64,000 nt of DNA from an uncultured Gammaproteobacteria bacterium (GCA_964509735.1 CAZDYJ010000002.1:481-64480); one strand, 5' to 3'; positions 11,741-45,120 are shown, counted from the first letter of the stretch. Program-made: numbers and translations. The notes: a model not told the origin generated them from the sequence alone.

Positions 11741-11744
11741 AGTT

Positions 11745-12212: not shown

Positions 12213-12273
12213 AGTTTTTAAAATTAGAAAAATAAGGGAAAAACCTACATTTTGTGGACTTTTTATACTTTAA

Positions 12274-12517: not shown

Positions 12518-12597
12518 ATAATTTCTCAATGTCTAACGTAGTCTGAATTATTTTATAATTATAGCTTTTTATTTAATTAAGGGCAAGTGGTTTATTA

Positions 12598-13872: not shown

Positions 13873-13905
13873 ACATTTAAATTTATACTAGAATTATATC
13901 ACATC

Positions 13906-23613: not shown

Positions 23614-23642
23614 TTTAGTCACAGGACCTCACATAACAAAAA

Positions 23643-23672
23643 AAACATCGCTATTTAAACGATGTTTTTTTA
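23643..23672 (+). terminator. Rho-independent terminator after clpP (palindromic; may also terminate the converging minus-strand surface-protein array)
   Basis: aacatcg-ctatttaaa-cgatgtt hairpin followed by a T7 run. Confidence 0.55.
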
Positions 23673-23688: not shown

Positions 23689-24696
23689 TTATTTTTTAAA
23701 AGTAAAAGAATTTAACATTAAATTGAATATATTTTTATAAGCAAGTCTTTCGGAATTAATTGGTATATAAGATAGAGCATAAATATTTTCCCGACTTTCT
23801 TCTGTAATATAGAAATTTAAACCATCGGCACTTTTTATCGCCTCAAAATCACTTTTTACAATCAAACGATCAAGGCTGACGCTCTCATCTTTAAACATGT
23901 TTTCGTACCAAGAAACGATTCCTGATTTATTGTCATTTTTCATAACCGAAACCTGAAAATAAGATGAATCTGCCGCTTCTAAAACAAAGGTATTATCATT
24001 TAACTGATTAGTTAACCAGGCCACAGGATATAAAAAATTGAAAGAATAGGCCTGATTACGATAAAAAACAAGATTTGAATTGTCTTCTATTCTACCGACT
24101 CCGGCTGGATTATAAGAATTTAAAATTTCCTGCAAATCATTATACCCATCCCCATCGCTATCTTGATTATCTTTGGATGTGCCAAGAATAATCTCCTCTT
24201 CGTCGTATAAACCGTCTCCATCACTATCTAAAAGAGGTGCGTCGTCTACCTCGTCTACCTCGGGCCCACTTACCTCAACTGCTTCAATTAAAACAGTGTC
24301 ATTGTTGTCATTTAAATCAAGAACTGGAGCAGGTTCGGTAGATGAGGCTTGTAATTCCGCTTCCGATTTTTTTATTTCATTTTCAGGTTTTATTTCAATC
24401 TTATTTTTATTGGCTACTGGAGAAATAGTGTATATATAAGCAAAATAAACAATAGCCGCTATAACAATAAAACCAAAGAACATAATTAAAACTCCCACTA
24501 TTTTAAATTTCTTTTTTTCCGCAACATGGCTCTGCAAGCTAACTTTTCCAGCTGCTAAAGGATTAGAAACTGTGCCTAATATTTTTTCTTGATTAGGCAT
24601 ATTATGAACTATCAAATCACGTTCAATTTGATCAGAAATATCTTTCTCATTTATTTTTTCCTCTTTTTCTGTTTTTTTGTTCTTGGAAGAAAACAT
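23689..24696 (-). CDS. Single-pass membrane protein with extracellular thrombospondin-type-3-like Asp-rich calcium-binding repeats
   Basis: TM helix VGVLIMFFGFIVIAAIVYFAYIY. DSDGDGLYDEEEI...DSDGDGYNDLQEI (DxDxDGxxDxxE). Ends with the SYNPAGVGR motif shared with the 251-aa paralog. Confidence 0.5.
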   Translation of the reverse strand: MFSSKNKKTEKEEKINEKDISDQIERDLIVHNMPNQEKILGTVSNPLAAGKVSLQSHVAEKKKFKIVGVLIMFFGFIVIAAIVYFAYIYTISPVANKNKIEIKPENEIKKSEAELQASSTEPAPVLDLNDNNDTVLIEAVEVSGPEVDEVDDAPLLDSDGDGLYDEEEIILGTSKDNQDSDGDGYNDLQEILNSYNPAGVGRIEDNSNLVFYRNQAYSFNFLYPVAWLTNQLNDNTFVLEAADSSYFQVSVMKNDNKSGIVSWYENMFKDESVSLDRLIVKSDFEAIKSADGLNFYITEESRENIYALSYIPINSERLAYKNIFNLMLNSFTFKK

Positions 24697-24705
24697 ATTT
24701 TTACT

Positions 24706-24897
24706 TTAAATAAAAAATAAAACGGCTATAATAATTAAAACAAAAATTAAAAATCCTAAAACCAGCCATTTTTGAAAATGGCCGGTTTCTGTTTTTGGCA
24801 TAGTATGTAAATCTAAAGACAGTTTTGCCGTTTCTTTTTTTTCAAAAAGATTTATACGGTGACGTGAGCTCTCTTTTTGTCCATCCTTTTCAGTCAT
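24706..24897 (-). CDS. Small membrane protein (63 aa), hypothetical
   Basis: C-terminal TM WLVLGFLIFVLIIIAVLFFI; sits between the two TSP3-repeat paralogs in the same orientation. Confidence 0.3.
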   Translation of the reverse strand: MTEKDGQKESSRHRINLFEKKETAKLSLDLHTMPKTETGHFQKWLVLGFLIFVLIIIAVLFFI

Positions 24898-24919
24898 ATT
24901 TTATATTGTCTAAAAAATT

Positions 24920-25675
24920 TTAGATTTCTAAACGACCTTCGCCGACAGGATTATAACCGTTTTTAACTTCCTCCCCGTCACTATATCCATCGCCGTCGGT
25001 ATCAGTAATAAGAGGATCGCTTTTATAAATCATCACTTCTTCATAATCACTTAAGCCGTCTCCATCAGTGTCTACTTTTAAAGGATCGGTTTTATAAGTC
25101 ATTATTTCTTCATAGTCTGTTAAGCCGTCTCCGTCTGAGTCTGAATTATAAGGATCTGTGCCGTATCTATAAATTTCATCATAATCCGATAAACCATCTT
25201 TATCTGAGTCTAATTGACTTAAGTCAACGCTTGGCACCTCCTCTTTTTCTTCTTCCTTTTCCTCTACCGTTGGCGTAACAAAAGAATCATCTTTTTCCTC
25301 AACAACAGGCACGTTTTGATTGTTTTCTGGAATTTGATTAATTATAGGTTCATTATTTTCTGGTTTTGGAGCAAGAAATTTACTATAAGCTAAATAAGCA
25401 CCTAAAATCAAAATAGCACCAACGACAGCAAAAATAGCAATTTTTAACCATTTTCCGCCACCTCTGCCTTCTTCCGGTTCTTCGTAAATAACTTTTTGTC
25501 CTGCTTGCAGAGAATTTGTTTCTAAACTTGAATTAGAAGGGTTAGAAGTTAAGCCAACTCTTCTTGTTTCAATTTGTGAAGATTGTTGTCCTCCAGTCGC
25601 ATTATCAGTGTCGGCAAAAATATCGTCGACTTTAGCGTTTTGAGGATTTTGTGCTCCAGTTAAATCATTAAACAT
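24920..25675 (-). CDS. Single-pass membrane protein with three tandem thrombospondin-type-3-like calcium-binding repeats (paralog of 23689-24696)
   Basis: [21 protein letters not shown]. Three ~22-aa repeats [11 protein letters not shown][IV]M.YK[TS]DPL, encoded by ~66-nt tandem DNA repeats at about 24960-25210. Ends with GYNPVGEGR. Confidence 0.5.
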
Positions 25676-25766
25676 ATTTTTATTTTCTTTTAAACTTAAG
25701 AAAAAATCTCAAGCCTTGTTAACTTATCTATATTATAAATCATTTGAAGTATTTTTCCAAATGTAT

Positions 25767-26057
25767 TTATTTTCTTGCTTCCATTAAATTCTCAGCTACT
25801 GGATCCAAAACTATTTCCGAATCGTTGTTTATTATTTTATAAATCAAATTACCATCTGAATCGCGAAAAGCTTGAGCTTTAATTTCTTGATCTAAACCAA
25901 GCTCATTTTTTTGTTCAGCGCTTAAAAACTCCACCTTAAAATCATTTTTTTCTTGAGTCTCGATGTCTTTATTGCGATTAAAGAATAACAAAAAAACCAA
26001 TAAAGCAATTAATAAAGCGACCAAGCTGCCGAGAATGATTATTTTTTTTCTATCCAT
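25767..26057 (-). CDS. Small N-terminally anchored protein (96 aa), hypothetical
   Basis: TM IIILGSLVALLIALLVFLLFF followed by a short soluble domain; in the same operon-like array. Confidence 0.3.
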   Translation of the reverse strand: MDRKKIIILGSLVALLIALLVFLLFFNRNKDIETQEKNDFKVEFLSAEQKNELGLDQEIKAQAFRDSDGNLIYKIINNDSEIVLDPVAENLMEARK

Positions 26058-26126
26058 ATACTTGTTTTAAATTTATTATCTTTAACAAAAAAATGATAAT
26101 TTTTTATAAATAAATATTTAACAAAA

Positions 26127-29100
26127 TTATTCCAAACGCTGCATAAGATCTTCGCCACCACCACCTCCACTGTTTCCCTCAATCTCTTTAACAACAGAAC
26201 CCCCACCTCCGCCGCCGCCACTACTAGAAGGACTGCTGCTTACAACACACACACCATTATAATTCATTGTTCCGTTTATAACTTTGCTGCCAATAGTTTT
26301 ACAAGAATCTCCAAAATATCTAACTATAAAATCAGTTCCCACACATTCATATCTATAACGATCACACCAATTAGTTGTTAGCCAGTTGTCTGTGCAATTA
26401 CCAGGAATTCTTGATGATCTTAAATCATCTTTGTCTCGACAACTATCCCCTGTGGCCACACCAATTCTTTTTAAATCTTTAAACCCAATTGGGCATTTTA
26501 TTTGATTTGTTTTGTGAGTATTATCACTTGATGTATATTTCGTGTTGTCTACGCAAATAGGATTATCTATTTGAATAAATGTACAGTTAGCTAAAGGGTT
26601 TGTTGGGTTAGAAAAAGAATCTGATAAACATATTTTTTTAGGATAGGTGTTGTTTATTTGACTACTTGTAAACCGATAGCTTTTTGTAGATACACCCTTG
26701 TAATACTCGTATGTTACTCCGGCTAAAGTTGCATCTCCTTCAAGAAATTGTATGTCTTTAACAATTTCCTCAACTACCCAACTTTTCTTTTCACATTTAT
26801 TGCTAGTGCATTTATAACCTAAGTCGCATTGTCCATCGGCTGTGCAATAACTTGGGTCAGCCTTACAGTCTCTGATAGCAAAATCACAAATAAAGCCTAT
26901 ATCACAGTCTCTGTCAGAAAAACAGGCTGTGTCATCTCCTTCGCCAGCATTAATACCACAGTCAACAGGACAAGTAGCTCTTCTTTCTTTAGCTGTCTGA
27001 CAAAAACCATCTCCACAAAAACCGCCACCATCAAGAGGATATTTAAAGACACAATAATTTCCAGAGGATATTTCAAATGGAGTCTTATCCCCTACGTTTG
27101 TATTACAAGCATACTGACGGTTAATAGAGCTGTTGTCTAAAGCATGGGCCGCCACACCATCTAATCCGTCACAATCTTCATAGCCATCATTATATAAACC
27201 CCCGCGTCCTTCAGAGTTAGGCGCCTGCTTAATGCCATCACCACAATAACTATTTATTCTCAAGCTAAATTCTTTCTGTGACTTTGCTCCAAAAGGAGAG
27301 GTAGCTGACACCTTAACATTAAAATATGATCCAGCCTGATTGCCAGGAAAAGATTTTGGATATCCGCTTATATAAAAACTATTTTGAGAAAGTTCAGCAC
27401 TGCCTAAATCTAAGCTAAAATCAGAGCTCGGCAAACCTTCTAAACGATAAGTAGTTTTTTGATCTAAATAAGAATCTGGGCCGACCAAACAATTATAAAA
27501 ATACTTATAACTACCCGACGAATTAATTCTCGCTGATAAAGGACAGGAAAAATTTAAAGGTGGTTTAGGTGATAAAAAATCCACATAAAATACTTTATTA
27601 AACCATTTATTATTTCTGTCTCTAACTCTTATATCAAAGCCAATTCTAACATCGTTAGAGAACTCTCCATTAGGATAATTTGCGGGATTAATAGTTCCGG
27701 TATAACTAACTTTATAGCGATTATTACCGGATGGAACTGGTTTTCCATCCCCTTCTCTTACAAAAAATGATCCAACTTCTGGTCCGGAAATTTTTTGTAC
27801 TACATAGTCGGAAGCACTGGGATTAGGGGATAAATTTTCTCCTGAAAAATAAAAACTATAATAAAAAGGAGTTCCTTCTTTAAGGGTGTGAATAGAATTT
27901 TCTGCTTCAATAAAAACGCCAGGCTCCTCTATTTTAATACTAAATGTTTCTTCAATGGCGCCACCGCGACCATCACTGACAATTAAATTAAAGTTATAGT
28001 TATTATTTGAGGGAGTTATTGGAGTTGAGGCGGCATAAACTTTTTTTTCAAATTTATTACTAGTATCAATTAAAACTGGTGCAGCACTCCAGCCAAGCCA
28101 TTTAGAAGCATCACCAGTTGATATTTCCCATTCTAAAGGATCGTTGTTTTCATCAAAAACCCTAATATAGCCATTTAAAGCTCTCCCAGCTTGAGCACTT
28201 AAATAATAGTCGACTACAATAGGGGAAATATTAGCACCGCTTCCACCTCCGGTTGTAAAATTAGTTAAACAAGCCGAACCACTATAATCACCGGGATTAA
28301 ATTCATATCCAAAATCATAACTTTCTAAAGAGGAGCATAAATTGTAACTCGAACCCTCTGAATTAGAAGCATAAACCATAACATAGCTGTTATCTGGTAA
28401 TGGCAAAGATTGTGGACCTGGATCATTTACAAAGCGTCGACTAATTTCATCCCAGCAAGTAATTTTATCAAAACCTGGGCAATAACCAAGTCTATTTATA
28501 GGATCAACATAATTTGGAGAAACGGCCAATTCACTTAAAAAATTCTGAGACCAACTAGGCCAGACAGACACGCTTTTGTTTGCCAAATAAGTTCCAGCTG
28601 TTAAACGAGGATAGTAACCAGTTTTCTGGCGATAATTAGCTAAAGCTTCTTTCATTTCCTCTAAACGTCCGATTCTTTTAGTATCTCTTATAATCATTGC
28701 TTTATGACTGTCACAAAAAAATCCACTCGGACAATCACTGTCAATTAGACAATTTTTTTTATTTAATAAAACACATGATCCCGTGCTGTTTCCTGAGGTT
28801 GAACAAATTTGATCATTAGAACAATCACTATCGTTTTGACAAGAAAAAGATGACACAGAGCAGGAATAAGAAGCATCCGAAAACTCTCCTTTACTTAAAT
28901 TATCATTAAACTTCCAACGAGAAATTATTTGTCCTAAAATATCAACTGTTTTTTCTGATGGCTCCTGGCTATAAGAAATAACATATATATTTGTAAACAC
29001 ATCTTTGCTGTCACTGACATTAGCAGCATTTACATAAACAGTTCGTCCATCTCTTATCGCTTCATAGCCATCAACCGTTAGAGCTTGTGGTGATCCAGCA

Positions 29101-29300
29101 AAGCCCTGACTTCTGTACCAAGAGGCGATGCTGTAATGATTGGGATTAGGAACAACTCGAACCGCAATAGCATCAGCTGAATCAGAAAAAGGATTTGAGT
29201 TTTCTTGAGCCTCGGCTGGATAAAAAACCAAAGCGGCTAAAAAAACAAAAGCAGATACTAAAATAAAACGACGAATGTTCATATTTTTTTCATTTTTCAT
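26127..29300 (-). CDS. Giant secreted Cys-rich protein (1057 aa) with Ig-like domains and a C-terminal poly-Gly tail
   Basis: Signal peptide MKNEKNMNIRRFILVSAFVFLAALVFYPAEA. Numerous Cys clusters (CSVSSFSCQNDSDCSNDQICS...; CGDGFCQTAKERRATCPVDCG). Cadherin/Ig-like segment LNGYIRVFDENNDPLEWEISTGD. C-terminus SSGGGGGGGSVVKEIEGNSGGGGGEDLMQRLE. Confidence 0.55.
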   Translation of the reverse strand: MKNEKNMNIRRFILVSAFVFLAALVFYPAEAQENSNPFSDSADAIAVRVVPNPNHYSIASWYRSQGFAGSPQALTVDGYEAIRDGRTVYVNAANVSDSKDVFTNIYVISYSQEPSEKTVDILGQIISRWKFNDNLSKGEFSDASYSCSVSSFSCQNDSDCSNDQICSTSGNSTGSCVLLNKKNCLIDSDCPSGFFCDSHKAMIIRDTKRIGRLEEMKEALANYRQKTGYYPRLTAGTYLANKSVSVWPSWSQNFLSELAVSPNYVDPINRLGYCPGFDKITCWDEISRRFVNDPGPQSLPLPDNSYVMVYASNSEGSSYNLCSSLESYDFGYEFNPGDYSGSACLTNFTTGGGSGANISPIVVDYYLSAQAGRALNGYIRVFDENNDPLEWEISTGDASKWLGWSAAPVLIDTSNKFEKKVYAASTPITPSNNNYNFNLIVSDGRGGAIEETFSIKIEEPGVFIEAENSIHTLKEGTPFYYSFYFSGENLSPNPSASDYVVQKISGPEVGSFFVREGDGKPVPSGNNRYKVSYTGTINPANYPNGEFSNDVRIGFDIRVRDRNNKWFNKVFYVDFLSPKPPLNFSCPLSARINSSGSYKYFYNCLVGPDSYLDQKTTYRLEGLPSSDFSLDLGSAELSQNSFYISGYPKSFPGNQAGSYFNVKVSATSPFGAKSQKEFSLRINSYCGDGIKQAPNSEGRGGLYNDGYEDCDGLDGVAAHALDNSSINRQYACNTNVGDKTPFEISSGNYCVFKYPLDGGGFCGDGFCQTAKERRATCPVDCGINAGEGDDTACFSDRDCDIGFICDFAIRDCKADPSYCTADGQCDLGYKCTSNKCEKKSWVVEEIVKDIQFLEGDATLAGVTYEYYKGVSTKSYRFTSSQINNTYPKKICLSDSFSNPTNPLANCTFIQIDNPICVDNTKYTSSDNTHKTNQIKCPIGFKDLKRIGVATGDSCRDKDDLRSSRIPGNCTDNWLTTNWCDRYRYECVGTDFIVRYFGDSCKTIGSKVINGTMNYNGVCVVSSSPSSSGGGGGGGSVVKEIEGNSGGGGGEDLMQRLE

Positions 29301-29328
29301 AAAATCAAAGCTATGGAAAATATATTTT

Positions 29329-32300
29329 TTAATCTCCTAAGGGAATAAAAAGCAATTCTTCTGACTTAGAACTTTCATTACCAGAACCATCAATTGCTGA
29401 TATGGCTATATAATTACCAGAAAAAGAAAACTCAGAAGCAGAAAATACAAGATTATTTAAAGCTTCACCACTTTTTTTAACTGGAGAGTCAAAAGATTTT
29501 CCATAAAGACCCGGTCTTAATCCGATGTAAATTCGGTAAAAAGAAGTGTCGTCATTATTTTCTTGCCAGCTAATACGAACTGAGTTTTCTCCAACAGGAT
29601 TAGCCTCTAAATTTTGTGGAACACTTGGAGCTGTTTTGTCAGTAGGCATGGCTATTTTTTCGTTAGCAGCTGGACTTTCGGCTTTGTTAACTGAAACAAC
29701 GCCAATTCTAAAAGCATAATTAAAGCCATTATCTAAACCAGATACAATAGCCGAACAGCTATAGATATTATTATTTAAACTACATATATCAGTATTGTTG
29801 GCCTTAATTTCTCTAAAAGATATTTCACTTTTGCCCGCACGAATATAATATATTTTGTAAGCATCAACTTGATCAGCATTTGACTCCCAAGAAATTTTCA
29901 CCTGACCACTGGTTTTTAAATCCAAGGCTTCAATTATCCTTCCTGAAGATGGTAATTTTTCTCTAAAGAAATATGATTCTTTTAAAACATTCCAAATACA
30001 TATTCCATCAGGCACACCATCACCATTTCTATCATCTCCACAACGATCATTTACATTATTGCAAGAAGCGGGGCGATCAGAGCTGCAAATCAAGTTATTA
30101 TTCCTACCAATAATCACCGGTTCATTTAAAACAGCTGGTAAATCATCGTATGTTCCGCTGGTTCCAGCATCGCGACAATAATAAAAGCTATAATTAAAAT
30201 TACCGCAATCACTTTCTCCAATTGTACAATTATTTACACTATCGTACCAAGGAGACCATAGGCCATCACGACTAATCGCTGGCCAAGGATTGTTACATAT
30301 AAATACAAAAATGTCAGCGTTTTTATTAAAGTTATTGCCAGCCGAATAGTAATTACAACAATTTTCTTCACAAATATCATTAGAACAAGAACAGGTCGCG
30401 TCGCTATTACAAGTTGACCCTGGAGTGTTAGCGATAAAACGAGACATATCTATAGAAGCGTTTATTTTTGTTTTACCATCAGTTATACCTTTTTGAGCTG
30501 AAACAAAATATTGATTTAAAGGTAAGCCGTTTAATCTTTCTCCTTTGGCGATTGTTTCATCAGCAATAGTAAACTTATAATCCCAAAAATAGCCACCAAC
30601 TGGACGCAAGGATTGTCCGTCACTGCTTAAAGCAAAGGCGCTCCAGACTTTATCCTTATCAGCTTTTGAATCAAAACTACCTGAACCAGGAATATCTTTT
30701 TCTTCAGACTCCAAGGCGTTGTCAGTAGTTTTAAATAAATAGGAAATAGGCTTAACATCGATATTCGAAATAGCACATATGCCAGACATGGCACTTTGAG
30801 AAGAAAGGGTTGAAAATTTAATTATTTCAGAATTTTTAAAACTCTTTTCATTAAATTTAATATTCTCAGCTTCTAAAAATCCGCTTGGGATAGAAGCATC
30901 GGGATAACCACGACCATTAAAACCAACTCCTTTAAGACTTAGTATACCTGTTTGACTATTTAAATTTTCATCACCTAAAACTAATAAATAGTAATTAGTA
31001 GATGGTGATAAAATAGTATTTGATAAAAAATTAACAGTACTGGCTTCGGCCGTATTTTCTAAAAATGCTTTACCAGGAATCATACAATAAAGTTTGTCCT
31101 CACTTGGTTTTTCAGCTAATGCCCTATTACTTAGAGATGGTGAGAATAAAGAGGCAATTTTTCTAACTGAAACTCTAAAGAAATTTTCTATTCTGGCAAA
31201 GAAATTATTATTATAAGCTATAGCGTCTTTTAAAGACTCAGCTGAAGCTACAAAAGAGCCGTTTGGACAAATCCCATCCCCAAAAGATCTTTCCTCAATT
31301 AGAACAATATTATTGTCTAAGGACGATTGATCCATTAACTGATTAAAGCTAAATTTTAAAATAGCATTACGACAAACATTATCTGATAAATGGGCTGGAA
31401 AACTCGAAACGATTGTTGGTCTTGTTTCACAACAAGTATCATTACCACAACCAACTAGTTCTGGTGAGCCACATTGCTCATCGGTTTCACAACCACAACA
31501 TAAACCTCTTTCTGCTCCAGCACAATTTCCGCGATCAGCGATACAAGATAAATTCGGATTAATATTTTGACATGAATCAAAAGCTCCCGGAGTAGTTACC
31601 GGCTGACAACAACAAGTTCCACAATCACCTGAAGTAGCTGAGCCAAGAACCCCTCCCTCTGCCATACAAGAAAATCCTGGAGCACTACACAAAGAAGTGT
31701 CACAAACATAGGGGTCTTTAATGCCAAAATAACCACTTACAGAACAAGATAATCCAACGCCACTTATAGGATTAGCACAGGCTGATTCACATTCCTTAAT
31801 ACCTTTATAGTTTCCTGTTTTTAGTTTAGTTTCAGAAGCACAAAGCTTTTCTTCTTCCTTACAATCATAATAAGCACAGTAACCTTGGTTTTCTGGATTG
31901 CCATCATTTATAACTTCTCCTAAGGTACACTTTGACTCCTTGGCATCAAAGCAGCAACGACCACTGGCTTCAGCTGAACAAGCGTCAAACCCTTCTAAGG
32001 CTGAGCATGGATCACTTAAAGCACATTCGGTTTCACATTTTTCTAAACTTAAATAACTACCTGTTTTAACAGGATAACTAGAAGCACAAACATTTGATTC
32101 AGTAGCGGAACAATTATAATAAGCGCAATAACCAAAGTCCTCACTTAAAGGATTATCGCTTATTAAATTGCCTTTTCCACCTCGACAAATCCCTGAGGCA
32201 GAGTCTAAACAACAAACATTAGCATGTTCAAGACAAGCCTCTGGGCTCAAACTAGCACAATCAGTACAATATCCATTTGGAAAACTAGAATCATTAACTT

Positions 32301-35196
32301 CACAAAATTGACCACTGGTTCCTGAACAATTACAAGCAGCATCTCTTTCAAGGGCAGTATCTCCAGCAGCCGCACAACCACTACAACGACCTAAACCACT
32401 ATCATCGTTTGTAGTATCACTACCACAAGTTCCTCCGCATTGTAATTGAACAACTTCGCCGTCTTTGTTTTGAAAAGAGCAGCAATCCCGAGCACTCTGC
32501 CCAACGGTACAACAACAATCACAGCTAGCGCTTTTTGTGGAAACACAACGGCCTACCGAAGAATCACTCTCAGACTCACAAATGGACCCACTAGGACATA
32601 ATTTATTTGAAATACAGCGACCAAAACCATTTATATTTTCACATTTCAAACCGTAGTCGCAGCTAGAACAAGTTGAAGTTGGATTATAGCATTTATCTCC
32701 CACACCTCTTATAAATCCTTCTGGGCAAGATGATGTTAAATTTATTTCCAAACGTCCATTTTCATTACAATATAATTTAGTAGATAAAGCCTGTCCATTT
32801 AACTCATATTCGAAAGATTGATCTAAATCACAATTTTGCTCTTGTTCGTTTTCTAAGTTTTGTAAACATTTATCAAGGTTTGTGTTATAAGTACAATTAT
32901 TTTCTCCAATTCTACAACCAGCTACACTTGAACAATCATAACTACAATTGACACCAAATATTTTATCTCCACCAGCATAAGGAGAACATATACCAGAAGC
33001 ATTTGGACAGGCACCAACATTACAAAATCCGTAATATTTAGATAATCCGGCACAGCTATCTGCTTCTGTCTCTGGATTAGAAAAAGCGGTACTAAAACTC
33101 CATTCATAAACAGAGCTCGGTACGTCAACATAACATTTATCAAGTGTATTAACACACATTCCTTTTTTAAAAGTGCCAGCCGGACAACAAACCTGAGACC
33201 CACAATCAGAATTAGAAATACAAGCCCCAACTGAGAAATTTAAATCATTACCATAAACACCGTTTTTAAATATTCTAACAGGACCAGTAATTGAATTTTC
33301 CGGCACAGAAGTTTCCACCTTATCAGCCCGACCATCTTTCTTAACTATAGCTGACACATTATCAGAACCATTGAATTTAATTGAGACCTCGCTAGAAGGG
33401 GCACCAAAATATTCACCCCAAATAGCAACCTTAGTTAAGGTTGGTCCGCGAATAGGATCTATTTTACACAAACTTGTTTTTAAATCTATATTTTGATCAA
33501 AAGTAAAGGCTTTGGGATTTAAATTATCAGTGCTAACAGTTTTATCTCCTAATTCAATTTTTATAACATAGTCGGAAGGATTTAAATCTTTAGGAACTTT
33601 AACCATTATCTGATTATCTTTCCAAACAGAATTTAAACAAACTTCTGGAAAATCATAAGAAGCTTCAATGTCTCCAAAAAAAACTTTTCTATTACCCTTT
33701 GCTCCTCCAAAACCAGATCCATAAATAGTTACGTATTGACCAGTGTTTCCAGAGCTTGGAGAAAACGAAGAAATAAAAGCCCCTTCATTAGGTTCTTTTT
33801 CTTTTACAAATGTTAAAAAATTACTTTTCTCCAAACTACCATTTAAGGTTGCCTGGACAAAACTTCCTGACTCACCAGCTCGAATATTTGGAGTAGCTGA
33901 CAAACCTTGTAAGCCTTTGGGGTCACTAAAATCAGAAACAAGGCCTCTAACATTAGTTTGATAATTTCCAAAATAAGCCTCGCCTGAGAAAAGATTAACA
34001 CCGGAATAAGAAACCTCCGAACTTAACTGTCCTCTTATTGGATCAATTTCGCATAAACCAGGACGAACAATACTATTGGAACGAAAATCTGGAATAATTG
34101 GGCCATAGTCATTATTGGTTGTGTCAAAAAGAGAATCGGCGGCAACAACTTTTATAGGACCAGTCGCTGCGCCAGCTGGAATAGCGATAATTATCTGATC
34201 ACTTCTCCAGAAACTAATACAGTCTGGATTTATAATGTTTGGCCTATCAGCTTCTTTTTCAGTGCCACTTCCTAAAAAAATAACCTTACTCTTATCAGCA
34301 TCATAAGATCCAAAATTTCGTCCAGTAATAGTTAGAAAATTTCCCGTCGCTCCATTGGGAGCACTTAAGTTGCAAGTATCACTACAATCTGCGTCCGTTT
34401 TACAACTTTTATTCTGTTCATTCTGACAAAAACCGCCCGCTGGACTAATATCAATTATAACGGGAGACCCTATACAGGTACAAGAATCGGGACTACAAGT
34501 TAAATAGGCGCCACATAAAGCATCATCAGCCTGACAAGTAGAGCCGCTTGAAGATCTATTACAAGAATCACCAGCCTGACCCAAGGGGCGACATAAACAG
34601 CTGTTGTCACAGTAATTTCCCTCGCCACAAATTTGATCAGTAGCTTGGCAACCAGGCAAAGCACTACCATCACAACTAACAGGGCCACAACCAGCTCCAT
34701 AACAACCACTACAATCAGAGCCTATACAAGCGCCAAAAGATCCATTGTTCCAAACCATGTATCCTCCACAACCACAAGCTTGAGTATCTCCGCTATTGTA
34801 TCCCCAATTATCACCGCTTATTACGCCGCTAATTCTATTAATTAAAAAGCTGGCAATTCCCCAAGAGGCTAAAATTATAACTAAGCCAATAACTCCAGCA
34901 ACTAGTATTTTTTTAGCTTCGGAAACTTTTTCTTCATTTCCGCCTGAGGTCATCCATTTAAAACCGCCATAAAGAATTATGCCCACCGCTAATATACCTA
35001 AAAACCCTAAGGCAAAATTTATTATTCTTCCCGCCGTTTCCCTTGGGTCGCTATTTGTTTCGCCAAGTGATCCGTCTAAACCACTGGCCACCTGGTCAAT
35101 CCCGTAGTCTTGAGCAAAGGCTATGCGAAAAAATAAAATACCTCCCAATAAAAGCAGGAAAGAAGTTATCTTAAAAAATTTTTTTCTGTTTATCAT
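29329..35196 (-). CDS. Giant surface protein (1955 aa): TrbC/VirB2-pilin-like N-terminal double-TM module + IPT/TIG-like domains + extensive Cys-rich region + C-terminal fibronectin-III-like domains
   Basis: N-terminal signal (…AFAQD) then two hydrophobic helices separated by KWMTSGGNEEK (IINFALGFLGILAVGIILYGGF / VAGVIGLVIILASWGIASFLINRI). Three IPT/TIG-like segments (LTITGRNFGS; VTIYGSGFGG; VAIWGEYFGA). Over 150 Cys in patterned clusters. C-terminal FN3-like SVPQNLEANPVGENSVRISWQENNDDTSFYRIYIG. Confidence 0.6.
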   Translation of the reverse strand: MINRKKFFKITSFLLLLGGILFFRIAFAQDYGIDQVASGLDGSLGETNSDPRETAGRIINFALGFLGILAVGIILYGGFKWMTSGGNEEKVSEAKKILVAGVIGLVIILASWGIASFLINRISGVISGDNWGYNSGDTQACGCGGYMVWNNGSFGACIGSDCSGCYGAGCGPVSCDGSALPGCQATDQICGEGNYCDNSCLCRPLGQAGDSCNRSSSGSTCQADDALCGAYLTCSPDSCTCIGSPVIIDISPAGGFCQNEQNKSCKTDADCSDTCNLSAPNGATGNFLTITGRNFGSYDADKSKVIFLGSGTEKEADRPNIINPDCISFWRSDQIIIAIPAGAATGPIKVVAADSLFDTTNNDYGPIIPDFRSNSIVRPGLCEIDPIRGQLSSEVSYSGVNLFSGEAYFGNYQTNVRGLVSDFSDPKGLQGLSATPNIRAGESGSFVQATLNGSLEKSNFLTFVKEKEPNEGAFISSFSPSSGNTGQYVTIYGSGFGGAKGNRKVFFGDIEASYDFPEVCLNSVWKDNQIMVKVPKDLNPSDYVIKIELGDKTVSTDNLNPKAFTFDQNIDLKTSLCKIDPIRGPTLTKVAIWGEYFGAPSSEVSIKFNGSDNVSAIVKKDGRADKVETSVPENSITGPVRIFKNGVYGNDLNFSVGACISNSDCGSQVCCPAGTFKKGMCVNTLDKCYVDVPSSVYEWSFSTAFSNPETEADSCAGLSKYYGFCNVGACPNASGICSPYAGGDKIFGVNCSYDCSSVAGCRIGENNCTYNTNLDKCLQNLENEQEQNCDLDQSFEYELNGQALSTKLYCNENGRLEINLTSSCPEGFIRGVGDKCYNPTSTCSSCDYGLKCENINGFGRCISNKLCPSGSICESESDSSVGRCVSTKSASCDCCCTVGQSARDCCSFQNKDGEVVQLQCGGTCGSDTTNDDSGLGRCSGCAAAGDTALERDAACNCSGTSGQFCEVNDSSFPNGYCTDCASLSPEACLEHANVCCLDSASGICRGGKGNLISDNPLSEDFGYCAYYNCSATESNVCASSYPVKTGSYLSLEKCETECALSDPCSALEGFDACSAEASGRCCFDAKESKCTLGEVINDGNPENQGYCAYYDCKEEEKLCASETKLKTGNYKGIKECESACANPISGVGLSCSVSGYFGIKDPYVCDTSLCSAPGFSCMAEGGVLGSATSGDCGTCCCQPVTTPGAFDSCQNINPNLSCIADRGNCAGAERGLCCGCETDEQCGSPELVGCGNDTCCETRPTIVSSFPAHLSDNVCRNAILKFSFNQLMDQSSLDNNIVLIEERSFGDGICPNGSFVASAESLKDAIAYNNNFFARIENFFRVSVRKIASLFSPSLSNRALAEKPSEDKLYCMIPGKAFLENTAEASTVNFLSNTILSPSTNYYLLVLGDENLNSQTGILSLKGVGFNGRGYPDASIPSGFLEAENIKFNEKSFKNSEIIKFSTLSSQSAMSGICAISNIDVKPISYLFKTTDNALESEEKDIPGSGSFDSKADKDKVWSAFALSSDGQSLRPVGGYFWDYKFTIADETIAKGERLNGLPLNQYFVSAQKGITDGKTKINASIDMSRFIANTPGSTCNSDATCSCSNDICEENCCNYYSAGNNFNKNADIFVFICNNPWPAISRDGLWSPWYDSVNNCTIGESDCGNFNYSFYYCRDAGTSGTYDDLPAVLNEPVIIGRNNNLICSSDRPASCNNVNDRCGDDRNGDGVPDGICIWNVLKESYFFREKLPSSGRIIEALDLKTSGQVKISWESNADQVDAYKIYYIRAGKSEISFREIKANNTDICSLNNNIYSCSAIVSGLDNGFNYAFRIGVVSVNKAESPAANEKIAMPTDKTAPSVPQNLEANPVGENSVRISWQENNDDTSFYRIYIGLRPGLYGKSFDSPVKKSGEALNNLVFSASEFSFSGNYIAISAIDGSGNESSKSEELLFIPLGD

Positions 35197-35235
35197 TTTT
35201 TTAAACCTATATTTCGGTTTTAATTTTATATAAAA

Positions 35236-37938
35236 TTATAAACGACAATTACCCGATGAGTCTAATTCTGTTGTCGATTCTCCAAAACAACAAGAGCCGT
35301 CAACTTCAGAACAGCCAGGACCGATGCTTGGTTTGAAACAATTTTGATAAATATCTCTAACCCCGGAGCCTACTTGAGCATAAAAAGTCATTGATTCAGG
35401 AAGTGGAGTATGTCCAATAGTTGCAATTGTCATATCTGGTTCTCCGTCAAAAGGTTCAATATCTTTATTTTCGCTATTTATCCAATAACCAAAAGCGGCC
35501 GGAGCAGAACTTCTTAAGTTAATAAATTTATGATTATAAACATTACTACCCGCCCTTATATCGGTACTGCCGCTAATTAATGTGCTGTTTAGCATTAAAG
35601 TATTAAAATAAACATCAATTGGACTAGCTGGCTCTACCTCACTTGAGCCTTGTCCTGGTCCAATGTATGTTATTCTTGGTGGGTCTAAATTTATTTTATC
35701 GCTAACAAAAAATGACCATGAATAATTATCACCGTTTTCTATTGAAGGGTTATTTTCATTATAAAAACTAAGTGGACCTTGGGAACTGGTATTTCTATTT
35801 CCATCAAGAGAATTAGTTGCGGCGTCTATTATACCATCAAGATTAGCTATATTAGCTGACGGATAATTTTTTCCCTCTAAATTTTGACAAACATTATAAC
35901 CTAAAGGTACTGACGAGCATGAATTAAAGGGACTTAAAGCTGCACAGTCATTATTATTTGAGCAAGTTTTTAAATTTGCTGCCTGTAGCTCAACTTTTAA
36001 ATTACTGTTAGCCGGCAAACAATAAATTTTATCCCCACAAGCATTAACTCCACATTCCTCGTTAGATAAAAATTCTACAGTGCGATAACGATTAGAAACC
36101 ATGAAACGACCATTTACATAATCTCCCACGCAAATAGAATTATCACACTTAAAAGATTTACAATCGGAATTAGCGGAACATGATGATCCAGAAGGCAAGG
36201 AATCACTTCTAAAATTAACAACTCTTATAAAATTAGAGACTTCGTCAGCACTACCAGAAACGGTTAAAGGATTAATTGGTTCGTTAAAATTTATTTGAAT
36301 CGCAGAATTTCGAGGACGATCTGGTTTGTCTTTTACTTCACTTAAGTCTATTTTATTAAGCCCACCAGTAAATGGTTTTATGGATAAAGAGCTTGGATTA
36401 CTAGCACTTAAAACAATACTATTACCAGAAATTCCTGCCACTCTTGATTTTAATTTTATTAATGAGCCGTTAGAATTTTCCAATTCAATATCAGGATGAC
36501 CACTTAAAACTGCCTTGATATTAAAAGCTTGGCTTTCTAGGTTTGAAGGAGAAAGAGAATTACAGTTTTCCAAAACAGCAATATTATTATTCCCTGAAAC
36601 AGAAGAAAAAGTATAAACCATTGAGTTAACTCTTAAGGTATCGGCTAAACGCTCTGGTTTAATTTTTATTTCCCAAATATTTCCTGATTCACGAGTTTCA
36701 GTTTTAAATTTTAATTTATAATCGGCAAAGAACACTTCATTATTAGAATTGAAATCAGCAATTCCTAAGAGACTATTATTTAAACCATTAAATAGCTGAG
36801 CCTTGTTGGTATTGTCAGATGGAATAGATATTTTAAAAATGCTTATTTGCCCCGTATAATTATCAAAAGAAACTTCTGGGCCAGAAGGACTAATTGATAA
36901 AACTTCTGCTTTAGAATAAATTTCTGGGCAAGCATTTACTTTTATCTCAGCAATAGCTGAAACGGGAGAAACTGATTCTCCATAAAGATCTTTCTCGTTG
37001 TCCTGTCTAGGAACTATTTTATCTTGCAAAACAATTGGTGGTTCAAGATCTAAAACATTGCTAATTGTAAAAGTTACTTCTAAATAATTACTACTACAAG
37101 AACTAAACATTGAAACGCCGCCAGTTTTTTTTATTCTGTCAGTAAACCGAACGGAATAAGGGGTGTGCCCCGTGCTTGAACCCAAATAACTAAGTGGTGA
37201 TAGTACTAAAGTTTTTTTATCATTAGGAACAGAAACAAGCACATCACTGACATTAGAATTAACTGCTGGGCAAGAGCCGCCAGCACAAGCATCACCTAAA
37301 TCATTTTTAAATATTCTAATATTTTCTGGGTTTAACTTATTACAAGTATTGTTATCACAAGCACATGACAAACCAGCATCACTTATACAAACAGAGCTTA
37401 AATCAATTTCCTCTTTAAAAGTTATCATTATTGAAGTGTTTCGAGGAACGTCTTTTTGTCCGTCTTCAGGATAAATACTTTCAACCGAACAAGCTCCTAA
37501 GGCGCCAATCCCAGGATTATAAAAACCACTTGGAGTACTTTGCCATTGACTTGTTCCACCAGCGCCAGTTAAAGTATCTCTTACTCGATTGATGATAAAA
37601 GTTGTTATCCCCCAAGAAGCTAAAATAATTATTAAACCAATAACAGCATTTTTTAATATTTTCTTAGCTACTGATATTTTTTCTTCATTACCCCCTGAAG
37701 TCATCCATAAAAATCCAGCATAGATAACCAAAAGAACAGCTATAACGCCTAGGAAGCTTAGGGCTAATTGAATAAAGCGTCCAGCTACAACTCTTATGTC
37801 ATCAGTTGCAACTAGCGATCCATCGAGTCCCGACTCAACTTCAGTTAAACCAAAGTCTTGAGCAAAAGCAAAATTAACCAAGAAAAACAAGGTTAAAAAA
37901 CTAAAAGCCAAGACAAAGAATCTTATTTTTTTATTCAT
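35236..37938 (-). CDS. Giant surface protein (900 aa) sharing the same pilin-like N-terminal double-TM module, followed by Ig-like and Cys-rich domains
   Basis: The first ~125 aa are ~65% identical to the 1955-aa protein (MTSGGNEEK loop, two TM helices, AFAQDFGL signal-peptidase site). Bacterial Ig-like segments (SIYPEDGQKDVPRNTSIMITF; ITYIGPGQGSSEVEPASPIDVYF). Cys-rich C-terminal region. Confidence 0.6.
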   Translation of the reverse strand: MNKKIRFFVLAFSFLTLFFLVNFAFAQDFGLTEVESGLDGSLVATDDIRVVAGRFIQLALSFLGVIAVLLVIYAGFLWMTSGGNEEKISVAKKILKNAVIGLIIILASWGITTFIINRVRDTLTGAGGTSQWQSTPSGFYNPGIGALGACSVESIYPEDGQKDVPRNTSIMITFKEEIDLSSVCISDAGLSCACDNNTCNKLNPENIRIFKNDLGDACAGGSCPAVNSNVSDVLVSVPNDKKTLVLSPLSYLGSSTGHTPYSVRFTDRIKKTGGVSMFSSCSSNYLEVTFTISNVLDLEPPIVLQDKIVPRQDNEKDLYGESVSPVSAIAEIKVNACPEIYSKAEVLSISPSGPEVSFDNYTGQISIFKISIPSDNTNKAQLFNGLNNSLLGIADFNSNNEVFFADYKLKFKTETRESGNIWEIKIKPERLADTLRVNSMVYTFSSVSGNNNIAVLENCNSLSPSNLESQAFNIKAVLSGHPDIELENSNGSLIKLKSRVAGISGNSIVLSASNPSSLSIKPFTGGLNKIDLSEVKDKPDRPRNSAIQINFNEPINPLTVSGSADEVSNFIRVVNFRSDSLPSGSSCSANSDCKSFKCDNSICVGDYVNGRFMVSNRYRTVEFLSNEECGVNACGDKIYCLPANSNLKVELQAANLKTCSNNNDCAALSPFNSCSSVPLGYNVCQNLEGKNYPSANIANLDGIIDAATNSLDGNRNTSSQGPLSFYNENNPSIENGDNYSWSFFVSDKINLDPPRITYIGPGQGSSEVEPASPIDVYFNTLMLNSTLISGSTDIRAGSNVYNHKFINLRSSAPAAFGYWINSENKDIEPFDGEPDMTIATIGHTPLPESMTFYAQVGSGVRDIYQNCFKPSIGPGCSEVDGSCCFGESTTELDSSGNCRL

Positions 37939-38043
37939 CCAAGTAAAATTAAAAATTTTTAAATTTACACCTTACGTGATATAATTTAACTACCTAAATA
38001 ATAACACAAATAAGAAAAAAATAAAAATAATATTTCCCTAAAA

Positions 38044-39591: not shown

Positions 39592-39831
39592 CTATCTTCC
39601 AGCTCTCATAGTACCTTCAGGCAATTTACCAATTTTACGCAAAAATTCATTCTTCTTTTGAAGATCTAAGCCGATTAAAGCTTTTTTCTTCTGCGCTTGC
39701 TTGGTGGTTTTTGATTGAAGATGCTTTTTGGAGCGAGCTTTCTCGAGTCTCTTGCTATTTTTCAAACCACGTTTAAACTTACGCAAAAAACCTTCAAAAC
39801 TTTCTCCTGGTTTTCTTTTAAAATCCGCCAT
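39592..39831 (-). CDS. rpsU: 30S ribosomal protein S21 (bS21)-like
   Basis: Small basic protein with a FEGFLRKFKRGLKNSKRLEKARSKKHLQSKTTKQAQKKKAL pattern resembling bS21 (E.FE.ALRRFKR....G.L.E.R.R..Y.KPT..RK). Confidence 0.5.
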   Translation of the reverse strand: MADFKRKPGESFEGFLRKFKRGLKNSKRLEKARSKKHLQSKTTKQAQKKKALIGLDLQKKNEFLRKIGKLPEGTMRAGR

Positions 39832-43011: not shown

Positions 43012-45120
43012 CTAAAGAGGTAGGGAAAGATAAAAAATAGAACCACTATTTTTTCCTCTTTCAAACCACAAAACCCCGTTATGAGCTTCGATTATTTTTC
43101 TCGCAATAAAAAGATTTAAACCAAAACCTTCAGGGGATAAAGAAAAAGCCTGCTTACCTCTAAAAAATTTCTTAGCAATATTATTAAGACTTTCATCTTC
43201 TATGCCCATACCCTTATCTTTGACTGAAAAAACTAAATTTTCCTTACCTGATAAATATTTTTTTTCAATATTTAATTCTATTTCTCCTTCTTCAAAAGAG
43301 TACTTAACAGCGTTTGAAAAAATTATATGCAAAGCTTTTATTATTTTTTCTTTATCAACTTCAAATATAAAATTTTCATCAAAAATATCTTTTTTAATTT
43401 TTAATTTTTTATCTCTAATATTTTTTTCTTCTAATAAAAATACTGGCTCGGTTATTTCGTCAAAAAAGACTTTACTTTTTTTTAAAGAAAATCCAGTATT
43501 TTCCATTTCTAAAACCAGTAAAAGTTGATCTAAATAACTATCAATAGTTAAAACTCCCTGATAAGCTTCTTTAAGAGAATTGTCTTTATCTTTTTTATTT
43601 AAACTGTTATCACGGCAAAGTTCTAAATTAAAACGAATAGATGAAAGAGGGGTTCTGAATTGATGAGAAATTACAGAAATTAAACGAGACTTTTCTTTGT
43701 CTACTTTTTTTAAAGACTCATAAATAGAGTTATTATTAATAAGTAAGCTAATTTGCCAAATAACATGTTTAATTAAAGTAAAATCTTCTTGTTTAAAATA
43801 ATCATTGGAAAGCTTATTGGTAAAAGCATAAAATCCCAACAAACGATCTTCAAACATTATAGGTGATAACAAAGATATCCCAGATTTTTCCATTTCTAAA
43901 ATAATTTTTTCTCGAGAAATCATTTTTTCATCAATAGTTCCAAAATCGGCCAAAAGTTCGTCTTTATCTAAAATCTCCTTAGGATAATGTTCAAAATATT
44001 GAACAAATAAAGACTTTTTATCAATCTTATTAATTAAAACACCCTCTCCACCAAAATGATATTTAAGAAATTCTCCTTGATCGCTTATAATAAATACGGC
44101 ACTTCCAGACACTTTTAACATATCCGAAACAATAGATTCAATGGCGGTTAAAGATTTTTTCAAATCAAGACCAGATGATCTTATTTCGTGATTAATATCT
44201 GAGGCAATTTCAGAAAAGCGGTATTTTTTTTGAAACAATATTTTATCACTTAAGTCAGCAATCGCTTCTTTTATTCTTTCAAAGGCGATTACAATCATAA
44301 TTGAAGGAATTATGTAAAGCCATGGCTCTCTCATTCCTAATAAATGTGACATTAGATAACTAAGTGAAGCGTAGACACCAATAACAACAACTAATAGAAA
44401 TGAAAATACGGCACTCAAACGCAAAACATAACGAACGTCTAATAATCTATATTTTATAATAGCGTAAAAAATACAAACAAAAAGAATAACCGGGCTAAAA
44501 TTCATTAAACGAAAAATAAAAAGAGGAACCTGGTTTTGCATGGATAAATTAAAAACCGCTAATAAAGAAAAAGTTAAAAATCCAATTAAAACATATTTTA
44601 TTTGCATTCTCCCAACACCGCTTTCCTTTTTATATTGAATAAACTGATTAATAATTCCACTAAAAACATTAGCAATTAAAATAAAAGAATAAATTGGAAA
44701 AATTACCCCTTCCGAGAAAAAAACTCCACTTTTTCCTATACCCACATTATAAATAAGTAAATCACTGAAAGAAAAAAATGAGACAATAAAAGTTGGCAAA
44801 AAAAACAAAGGAATAAGCTTATTGAATTTCTTATTTTCTTTAGGAAAGTTAAAAAGAAAAACAAAAGACAAAAAGACAACAAAAGCTCCAATCAAGAAAT
44901 CCAGTCTTAAAAGGACATTGGCAAGTAATATTGAGGAAACTAAATTTTCCAAAAAACTAATCATTATCCAAACCGCTCCCGAAGTAGAAAAAAGAAAAAA
45001 AGAAACATTGGTTATATTTTTCTTTTTCTTTAAAACCAAATAACCCAACAAGATAAGCAAAATTGAAATCGTTGAAGCTATAATAATAAACAAATTTATC
45101 ATATTTTTATTTTTTTTCAT
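43012..45120 (-). CDS. Sensor histidine kinase with an N-terminal multi-TM sensor domain (orphan; no adjacent response regulator)
   Basis: About 7 N-terminal TM helices. H-box VISHQFRTPLSSI. N-box NAVKYS. G1 DKGMGI, G2 GFGLNLF. Confidence 0.7.
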   Translation of the reverse strand: MKKNKNMINLFIIIASTISILLILLGYLVLKKKKNITNVSFFLFSTSGAVWIMISFLENLVSSILLANVLLRLDFLIGAFVVFLSFVFLFNFPKENKKFNKLIPLFFLPTFIVSFFSFSDLLIYNVGIGKSGVFFSEGVIFPIYSFILIANVFSGIINQFIQYKKESGVGRMQIKYVLIGFLTFSLLAVFNLSMQNQVPLFIFRLMNFSPVILFVCIFYAIIKYRLLDVRYVLRLSAVFSFLLVVVIGVYASLSYLMSHLLGMREPWLYIIPSIMIVIAFERIKEAIADLSDKILFQKKYRFSEIASDINHEIRSSGLDLKKSLTAIESIVSDMLKVSGSAVFIISDQGEFLKYHFGGEGVLINKIDKKSLFVQYFEHYPKEILDKDELLADFGTIDEKMISREKIILEMEKSGISLLSPIMFEDRLLGFYAFTNKLSNDYFKQEDFTLIKHVIWQISLLINNNSIYESLKKVDKEKSRLISVISHQFRTPLSSIRFNLELCRDNSLNKKDKDNSLKEAYQGVLTIDSYLDQLLLVLEMENTGFSLKKSKVFFDEITEPVFLLEEKNIRDKKLKIKKDIFDENFIFEVDKEKIIKALHIIFSNAVKYSFEEGEIELNIEKKYLSGKENLVFSVKDKGMGIEDESLNNIAKKFFRGKQAFSLSPEGFGLNLFIARKIIEAHNGVLWFERGKNSGSIFYLSLPL

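Follow-up and report, generated by a model that had tools for sequence, protein, structure and literature searches.

Patescibacteria account for a large share of bacterial diversity, and their cultivated members live attached to other microbes. To our knowledge, only a few Saccharibacteria have known attachment factors. Giant Ig-like or cadherin-like adhesins are well known, and so are proteins with TSP3 repeats. In cultivated Patescibacteria, epibiotic growth needs surface adhesins, type IV pili (T4P) and type IV secretion systems (T4SSs) with VirB2-like pilins (PMC10633639, PMC12857230); Saccharibacteria cannot grow as epibionts without their surface adhesins and a T4SS that has VirB2-like pilins (PMC10633639). 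Small VirB2-like pilins of Patescibacteria and their arrays have already been published (PMC12102498), as have modular type IV pilins, with examples from the candidate phyla radiation (CPR) (PMC8179133). Here we describe a minus-strand array of seven genes at positions 23689-37938 of a 64,000-nucleotide stretch of DNA deposited as an uncultured Gammaproteobacteria bacterium (GCA_964509735.1 CAZDYJ010000002.1:481-64480); we call this whole stretch the window. Two of the encoded giants carry VirB2/TrbC-type modules at their N-termini, and we put the array forward as a conserved candidate, concrete enough to test, for a surface complex of a whole uncultivated lineage. A first-pass annotation of the window had singled out the array as what looked like a dedicated attachment or host-interaction apparatus. 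We found no published description of it in the literature searched.

A compact array of seven exported proteins

In the ORF listing of the window, the array consists of seven consecutive open reading frames (ORFs), all co-oriented on the minus strand, which we name by the length of their products (Table 1). Going from gene 7 to gene 1, the intergenic gaps are 9, 22, 91, 69, 28 and 39 bp. The array is packed, co-oriented and terminated as one unit. A promoter scan of the array gave a signal no higher than the shuffle expectation, and for that reason the assignment of the promoter to the divergent intergenic region beyond gene 1 is positional only. The GC content of the array (0.33-0.38), set against that of the remaining window (0.27-0.36), carries no signal of recent horizontal transfer. 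All seven products are predicted to be Sec-exported or membrane-inserted. By hydropathy, all three giants (p900, p1955 and p1057) have signal peptides, with AXA-type cleavage sites AFA/QD or AEA/QE, and the four small proteins are bitopic, with the N-terminus inside and one transmembrane (TM) segment each.

The giants are rich in cysteine, at 2.9% for p900, 6.3% for p1955 and 3.8% for p1057 (40 residues), against 0.55% in ten flanking window proteins; the four small proteins (p96, p251, p63 and p335) have no cysteine at all. Within the Cys-rich stretches of the giants, a Cxx(D/N)xDC mini-motif recurs. MdbA-like oxidoreductases and VKOR are overrepresented in CPR genomes (bioRxiv 10.1101/335083). 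We find no catalytic family or enzyme fold across the array by sequence-profile, PDB or structure comparison, and no tandem-repeat or phase-variation signals in the array except the TSP3 repeats, which are visible at the DNA level.

Much of the first-pass annotation of the array holds. The seven minus-strand ORFs have exactly the coordinates and sizes it gave, and its tight spacing corresponds to gaps of 9-91 bp. The exported protein, which it had put at roughly 20% of the window, comes to 4657 codons, or 22%. The Cys-rich character of the giants and the lack of catalytic domains are both confirmed, the latter by every method used. Its list of adhesion-type modules is largely borne out (Big_5, TIG, FN3, cadherin-like, TSP3); the "Cys-knots" on the list correspond only to the Cys-rich stretches with Cxx(D/N)xDC. 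Finally, packing, terminator and synteny agree with its proposal that the genes are a dedicated unit, operon-like and co-oriented, for exported proteins of adhesion type. We conclude that the seven genes very probably form a co-functional surface unit.

Table 1. Coordinates of the array genes, their main domains and the adjoining signals (positions counted from the first letter of the window).
Feature	Coordinates	Strand	Description
Gene 1, p900	35236..37938	-	900 aa; signal peptide, VirB2/TrbC-like hairpin, beta-rich ectodomain of ~760 aa, Big_5 Ig-like domains, 26 conserved Cys
Gene 1 pilin-like anchor domain, aa 24-125	37564..37869	-	Pfam T4SS_pilin
Gene 2, p1955	29329..35196	-	signal peptide, VirB2/TrbC-like hairpin, Cys-rich, at least 2 IPT/TIG, ~600-aa Cys-rich stretch, Big_5, 2 FN3; 124 Cys
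Gene 2 pilin-like anchor domain, aa 26-128	34813..35121	-	Pfam T4SS_pilin
Gene 3, p1057	26127..29300	-	signal peptide only; membrane anchor and LPXTG absent
Gene 3 N-module, aa 43-345	28266..29174	-	strongly conserved, many invariant residues
Gene 3 tandem cadherin/Ig-like (He_PIG/PKD-like) domains, aa 360-685	27246..28223	-	
Gene 3 variable C-terminal region, aa 800-1057	26130..26903	-	Cys-rich, Gly-rich acidic tail
Gene 4, p96	25767..26057	-	N-terminal TM segment and short outside domain
Gene 5, p251	24920..25675	-	cytoplasmic N-terminus, TM segment, acidic linker, 4 TSP3 repeats
Gene 6, p63	24706..24897	-	tail-anchored (C-terminal TM segment), cytoplasmic LHTMP motif
Gene 7, p335	23689..24696	-	cytoplasmic (I/V)VHNMP, TM segment, linker, 2 TSP3 repeats, ~135-aa C-terminal domain
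Intrinsic-terminator-like hairpin	23639..23671	-	14-bp stem and T run; 18 bp past the gene 7 stop, before convergent clpP
AT-rich divergent intergenic region, 105 bp	37939..38043	.	between gene 1 and relA/spoT; presumed array promoter region by position

Conservation of the array across the lineage

Counting gene 3 relatives by a pattern scan with one genome per GTDB species, we find relatives of p1057 in 176 GTDB species representatives, from Candidatus Falkowbacteria and relatives in class ABY1. The homologs are labelled Patescibacteria, Parcubacteria or Candidatus Falkowbacteria, and Falkowbacteria are placed in GTDB class ABY1 (PMC12102498, supplementary genome table). Judged by these homolog labels, the source organism of the window is a Patescibacterium; it thus has a reduced genome, as had been supposed. 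Many of the records with the array (L008, L010-L012 and others) are titled "uncultured Gammaproteobacteria bacterium" despite carrying a Patescibacterial array, apparently as a placeholder or mislabel.

We compared the window proteins by tblastn against 80 fetched loci, and judged gene order where the flank sufficed (more than 70 loci). Nearly every locus with enough flank keeps the same order, with relA on one side, then 900-1955-1057-(96)-251-(63)-335, then clpP-secDF-Wzy/TPR on the other. The exceptions among the fetched loci are L030 and L086. The full order including clpP-secD-secF-Wzy/TPR is also present on five contigs that we inspected one by one. Genes 1 and 2 are separated by a median of 25 bp over the fetched loci, and genes 2 and 3 by a median of 18 bp. 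Insertions of 1.5-4.6 kb are found between p335 and secD in 7 of 54 loci, while inside the array only 2 of 61 loci have a gap of more than 1.5 kb, both between genes 3 and 5. The flank insertions, of about 1.5-5 kb, lie between clpP and secD in five loci (L023, L026, L031, L033, L042) and between the p335 homolog and clpP in two (L041, L072). Another insertion, between secF and Wzy in L007, consists of IMPDH and adenylosuccinate synthase. In L032, gene 1 is absent and gene 2 is cut off at the contig end.

The identity of each window protein to its orthologs is 76-90% for ClpP, 62-89% for RelA, 59-73% for HisS, 48-72% for SecD and 55% for QueA. For the giants it is 42-61% (p900), 37-61% (p1955) and 34-52% (p1057); for p251 and p335 it is 32-53% and 25-45% respectively, both over full-length matches, and for Wzy/TPR it is 25-49%. 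To judge from these comparisons, a large lineage of Patescibacteria has the array fixed and under purifying selection, and only the C-terminus of gene 3 evolves freely. The first-pass annotation had asked whether the array is both syntenic and variable among related genomes. Synteny is found in nearly every related locus; variability is not found for p900 and p1955, and for p1057 it is confined to the C-terminal third. Scattered homologs, which it had named as an outcome fatal to its claim, are not what we observe, since the array order is reproduced in essentially every locus with enough flank.

Two giants with pilin-like anchors

The pilin-type anchors on p900 and p1955 are the most distinctive feature of the array. 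The Pfam family PF18895 (T4SS_pilin, cut-off 26.6 bits) matches p900 with 37.2 bits and p1955 with 42.6 bits, a weaker match to the Pfam family TrbC/VirB2 (PF04956) also falls on the N-termini of the giants, and in NCBIfam the p900 anchor scores 36 bits, under the cut-off of 40, to the Mbov_0395 pilin-like conjugal transfer protein of a Mycoplasma integrative and conjugative element (ICE). A profile search for T4SS-pilin modules had been proposed as a check, and its result is that both membrane-anchored giants start with paralogous VirB2/TrbC-type hairpins, 62% identical between the two anchors. The hydrophobic segments by hydropathy are at residues ~50-83 and 97-119 of p900 and at 55-81 and 91-123 of p1955. 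In the AlphaFold2 (AF2) model of p900, whose predicted local distance difference test (pLDDT) score is 79, residues 48-79 and 85-123 are helical and the beta ectodomain is modelled with confidence. Of the whole protein, the hairpin occupies 11% in p900 and 5% in p1955. We rejected paralogy of the ectodomains among p900, p1955 and p1057, as only the p900 and p1955 anchors align.

In sequence and fold, both giants look like VirB2/TrbC pilins, with a Sec signal peptide, two hydrophobic helices and a profile score above cut-off. Their size does not fit, as they are proteins of 900 and 1955 residues and not stand-alone hairpins. Nor does their gene context: virB4, virB6, virB3/prgI and trsD are absent from the 64-kb window, where a T4CP-like ATPase 27 kb away is the only gene of T4SS type, and the fetched loci (±10 kb) carry the same housekeeping flanks as the window. 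Because size and context fail even though sequence and fold agree, we do not file the giants as T4SS pilins. They also lack the class III leader peptide, cleaved by prepilin peptidase, that marks type IV pilins. A C-terminal LPXTG (sortase) motif is absent, the sole LPxxG being an internal LPSSG at residue 1748 of p1955, and no SLH or other wall-binding Pfam domain is found in the array proteins. In the ectodomains, Pfam identifies IPT/TIG (two stretches), two fn3 and Big_5 in p1955, and Big_5 in p900.

Both giants are evenly conserved over their full length, with the pilin hairpin among the most conserved segments. For p900 there are more than 120 full-length homologs of 870-920 aa with 48-61% identity, and its cysteines are mostly invariant or nearly so (62 sequences). 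When only the p900 ectodomain is the query, an exhaustive HMMER search yields 818 clusters at E<=1e-3, of which 303 reach E<=1e-30. Where the match is full-length, among the best 150 of these 303 clusters, the ectodomain starts at about residue 115-220, mostly at 135-160, so a segment of the size of the anchor precedes it in the homologs. Orthologs of p1955 have a median length of 1948 aa (58 loci). The high conservation of the hairpins and their mutual similarity suggest that they associate or oligomerise specifically, rather than acting as passive anchors. A role of p900 and p1955 as variable adhesins is ruled out by their full-length conservation, which is near the level of QueA and SecD.

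A third giant with a conserved N-module and a variable C-terminus

The third giant, p1057, has 509 homologs. Its AF2 model, built from 71 sequences, has a pLDDT of 78.6, and its parts include the N-module, a conserved CGDG-type Cys-rich stretch, and a Cys-rich C-terminus with a Gly-rich acidic tail. Between residues 360 and 685 it has tandem beta-sandwich domains with the cadherin/Ig topology expected of cadherin-like/He_PIG proteins. The fold similarities in the array are to this cadherin-like tandem and to Ig domains of streptococcal and staphylococcal adhesins. The N-module is the best-conserved stretch of the array, with dozens of invariant residues, and residues 51-100, at 75% mean identity, are its most conserved 50-residue block. 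We find no PDB sequence match for the N-module. The PDB profile searches with p900, p1057, p1057 residues 195-350 and the p335 C-terminal domain give only marginal PKD matches and one PsbP match.

Variation within the array is limited to the C-terminus of p1057, past about residue 800. There the mean identity falls to 10-18% with a gap fraction of 31-75% (67 orthologs). The orthologs range from 693 to 1679 aa, and their C-terminus is swapped for Beta_helix, He_PIG, Golvesin_C, CarboxypepD_reg-like and other modules. In L030, one of the two exceptions to the conserved order, a p1057 homolog (1009 aa, 9881-12910) stands directly before a 325-aa TSP3 membrane protein (12920-13897), and the giants are not adjacent. 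Because this pairing persists without adjacent giants, it suggests that p1057 and the TSP3 proteins work together; the arrangement may represent the system in a minimal or ancestral form. L030 also carries a stand-alone 124-aa T4SS_pilin gene at 1384-1758, 8 kb upstream of the p1057 homolog.

TSP3 repeats and cytoplasmic motifs in the small proteins

The Pfam family TSP3_bac (PF18884) matches p251 in four stretches (E 1e-25, 89.4 bits) and p335 with 25.8 bits, barely over the cut-off of 25. DxDxDG motifs number four in p251 and two in p335. By these matches, both belong among the bacterial TSP3 proteins with putative Ca-binding repeats. In p335, the C-terminal domain shows a weak similarity to PsbP (E 0.033, and E 0.023 to PDB 2xb3), and may be PsbP/Mog1-like. 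The TSP3 repeats of p251 are visible in the DNA as a 69-bp tandem repeat at 25008-25156, inside gene 5, with 2.1 copies at 80% match. Since they form such a tandem repeat, the repeat number of p251 could change by slippage or recombination. The lengths of p251 orthologs span 221-327 aa.

Short motifs on the cytoplasmic side are widely kept. The N-terminus of p251 has the motif MFNxL...VDDIFAeTD in 58 of 59 orthologs, and the cytoplasmic side of p335 has (I/V)VHNMP in 55 of 63. Of 58 loci, 39 have a p63-like tail-anchored ORF, in all 39 cases with HxMP, and a positional equivalent of p96 with an N-terminal TM segment is found in 58 of 61. The motifs VDDIFAeTD, LHTMP and (I/V)VHNMP precede TM segments, and within the window they occur in the array only.

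A model of the surface complex and its alternatives

We propose that the seven genes are one operon that builds a surface complex characteristic of the Falkowbacteria lineage (class ABY1). In this model, p900 and p1955 would be cleaved by signal peptidase I and kept in the cytoplasmic membrane by their hairpins, while their ectodomains (Ig-like, TIG, FN3, Cys-rich) would project outward as a conserved, disulfide-stabilised scaffold. The anchorless p1057 would use its N-module to dock on the scaffold, the TSP3 proteins or the two together, extend its cadherin-like chain and present a lineage-variable binding module at the distal C-terminus. The four bitopic small proteins would form the membrane base, where TSP3 repeats would bind Ca2+ and tether or rigidify the assembly. 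The cytoplasmic motifs VDDIFAeTD, HTMP and HNMP would couple the complex to a cytoplasmic partner. Its function would be a Ca2+-dependent adhesion to, or contact with, another cell or surface, matching the epibiotic lifestyle of cultivated Patescibacteria. We prefer adhesion or contact because recognition and adhesion devices usually look like this, with a variable module at the far end of a conserved scaffold, and because cultivated Patescibacteria depend on surface adhesins, T4P and T4SSs for epibiotic growth. To the whole statement, a one-operon surface complex with an adhesion or cell-contact function, we give a probability of about 0.5. A role in host attachment would be plausible.

A bolder version of the proposal is tentative, and we would not bet on it. 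The array might be an unrecognised envelope organelle that defines the Falkowbacteria, with VirB2-type modules co-opted without a T4SS as the oligomerising roots of disulfide-rich giants, a docked cadherin-like protein as an exchangeable tip, and a Ca2+-binding TSP3 base wired to the cytoplasm. If so, surface machines on modular VirB2 pilins would form a new class, and the array might be the structure, long sought, through which a major uncultivated group of the CPR contacts its hosts.

Several points weigh against the proposed adhesion complex. The lineage neighbourhood is collinear throughout, and for this reason synteny alone overstates functional coupling. The NCBI organism labels of many metagenome-assembled genomes are generic or wrong, which makes the boundary of the lineage approximate. 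As the fold of the p1057 N-module is unassigned, it may have a cryptic enzymatic or wall-binding function. We infer all protein-protein contacts in the model, and we know of no host for Falkowbacteria. Finally, the giants show about as much conservation as QueA and SecD, a pattern usual for housekeeping proteins, so a structural role in the envelope fits them as well as an attachment organelle does.

This last point leads to the alternative that survives best, in which the array makes a housekeeping scaffold for the envelope. Such a coat, S-layer-like or wall-organising, would be needed by every cell to stay intact or in shape, and would have no specific part in host contact. The near-universal presence and strict synteny of the array in the lineage, beside relA, clpP, secDF, hisS, lepB and ftsAZ, agree with such a scaffold, as does the conservation of the giants over their full length. 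S-layer proteins are usually Cys-poor, however, and the 3-6% cysteine of the array giants would be atypical for them. The lack of an SLH or other wall-binding Pfam domain also speaks against a wall coat, and the similarity to SbsC is of a generic Ig-like kind, with the same Z as CopC. A C-terminus that swaps domains, as in p1057, is seen more typically in proteins that recognise ligands than in lattices. On balance we find the scaffold doubtful.

Less probable still is that p900 and p1955 are modular VirB2-type pilins, extracted by a T4SS encoded elsewhere into a conjugative-type pilus, probably at its tip or base, where their ectodomains and partners would be displayed as pilus adhesins. The pilin module is genuine in both giants by PF18895, with the TrbC match and the similarity to the Mycoplasma ICE pilin-like protein in addition, and few parts of either giant are as well conserved. 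Patescibacteria do have T4SSs with VirB2-like pilins, which are essential in Saccharibacteria (PMC10633639; PMC12102498; PMC12857230), VirB4, TrsD and the T4SS coupling protein (T4CP) are listed for Falkowbacteria assemblies (PMC12102498, Table S3), a T4CP-like ATPase is found in the window at 6102-8189, and in type IV pili, carrier pilins that bear an effector module are already known (PMC8179133). But VirB4, VirB6, VirB3 and TrsD genes are missing from the window, and L030 is the only one of the 80 fetched loci with a small stand-alone pilin within ±10 kb. Ectodomains of 760 and 1830 aa per subunit would be sterically hard to accommodate in a helical VirB2 polymer, and the TSP3 and small TM proteins with which p900 and p1955 share the array are not known from T4SSs. 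We therefore consider a T4SS-extracted pilus improbable.

That the seven genes are functionally unrelated, and stand together only through the highly collinear genome of the lineage, would explain why the flanking housekeeping genes are equally collinear, but it is very hard to reconcile with gaps of 18-25 bp maintained over some 55 loci with insertions mainly in the flanks, with paralogous anchors on both giants, with a p1057-TSP3 pairing that survives in the different context of L030, and with a single terminator at the array end.

Genomic neighbourhood

On one flank, the array is followed by clpP (convergent), secD, secF, a Wzy_C/TPR membrane protein, an A24 prepilin peptidase, ftsA and ftsZ. 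On the other are relA/spoT (divergent), a 79-aa basic protein, hisS, lepB, queA and a 7TM histidine kinase, and further on this hisS/queA side ruvB, a UvrD/PD-(D/E)XK helicase-nuclease and an M16 peptidase. The remaining window is chromosomal housekeeping, including an anaerobic ribonucleotide reductase and gyrA. The neighbours that the first-pass annotation named (secDF, clpP, prepilin peptidase, Wzy/TPR) are thus all present in the window. The location of the array beside secDF, clpP and pilD is conserved; because the rest of the neighbourhood is conserved as well, this proximity argues little for a functional link.

Some other features of the window are worth recording. A 695-aa T4SS coupling-protein-like ATPase with TrwB_AAD_bind and TraG-D_C domains and a C-terminal treble-clef zinc finger (6102-8189, minus strand) adjoins a coiled-coil protein of 135 aa that has its TM segment at the C-terminus (8210-8617, minus strand). 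No other T4SS genes are found in the 64-kb window, and the ATPase may belong to a Patescibacterial T4SS encoded elsewhere. NrdD (the anaerobic ribonucleotide reductase), its radical-SAM activase and NrdR are clustered at 8639-12212 on the minus strand, consistent with an anaerobic lifestyle. The 79-aa protein between hisS and relA (39592-39831, minus strand) has 33% K+R, is 70-86% identical across loci, and is presumably a small ribosomal protein (S21-like). The HisKA_7TM histidine kinase (43012-45120, minus strand) has no response regulator among its immediate neighbours, and is missing at the corresponding position in L001 and L003. Two adjacent secreted proteins of 321 aa and 168 aa without a Pfam match are encoded at 61626-63094 on the minus strand; the 168-aa protein has an acidic repeat (FDFEDDFDFEEDFEVDFDLEGDFNFE) followed by a strongly basic tail.

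Comparison with known systems

What we did not find described in the literature searched is the presence of VirB2-type modules on giant ectodomains, in a lineage-wide seven-gene operon with a putatively docked cadherin-like protein and a TSP3 base. A surface adhesion complex built on modular pilins, which is the function we infer, would be mechanistically nothing unprecedented. It would extend the "carrier pilin plus effector module" design from type IV pilins to the unrelated VirB2/TrbC class, and the short cytoplasmic motifs may connect surface structures with the cell interior. The variable p1057 tip is a candidate determinant of partner specificity, and antibodies or probes directed at the conserved ectodomains could serve for visualising, sorting or enriching Falkowbacteria.

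The closest likeness of the giants' N-termini is to the VirB2/TrbC T4SS pilins of Patescibacteria, which share the signal peptide, the two hydrophobic helices, the short charged loop and PF18895. Those known pilins are small and stand-alone, often in arrays beside virB4, whereas the giants carry the module in fusion with ectodomains of 760 and 1830 aa, and their genes, distant from T4SS genes, belong to a fixed operon of seven alongside partners that are not part of T4SSs. The design itself is that of the modular type IV pilins, such as PilB of Streptococcus sanguinis, with an N-terminal pilin carrier, a linker and bulky adhesion modules such as vWA, lectin, FN3 and He_PIG (PMC8179133). The carrier class is unrelated, being a VirB2-like hairpin with a Sec/signal peptidase I signal and not a class III one. 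Compared with giant adhesins (SraP/GspB, RTX/BIg, cadherin-like), the array lacks LPXTG/sortase motifs, serine-rich repeats, an RTX/type I secretion signal and repeat expansion; its cysteine content is very high, and it is conserved rather than strain-variable. The run of Ca-binding TSP3 repeats in p251 and p335 is shared with Myxococcus CglD of the gliding adhesion complex and with MtsC/MtsD of cell cohesion, which function in Ca2+-dependent surface adhesion complexes. The likeness is in the repeats only: p251 scores 66 and 34 bits to these NCBIfam families, far under their cut-offs of 400 and 800, and p251 and p335 are short, bitopic, inner-membrane proteins of a monoderm. The Pam pili, according to their published abstract (bioRxiv 10.64898/2026.03.03.709456), are like the array a CPR-specific Ig-like surface structure in a conserved operon, and they are implicated in host contact; we saw no homology between them and the array, and no test aimed at it was made. 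They are set apart from it by donor-strand exchange, by chaperone-usher-like factors and by their occurrence mainly in Saccharimonadia and Microgenomatia (bioRxiv 10.64898/2026.03.03.709456).

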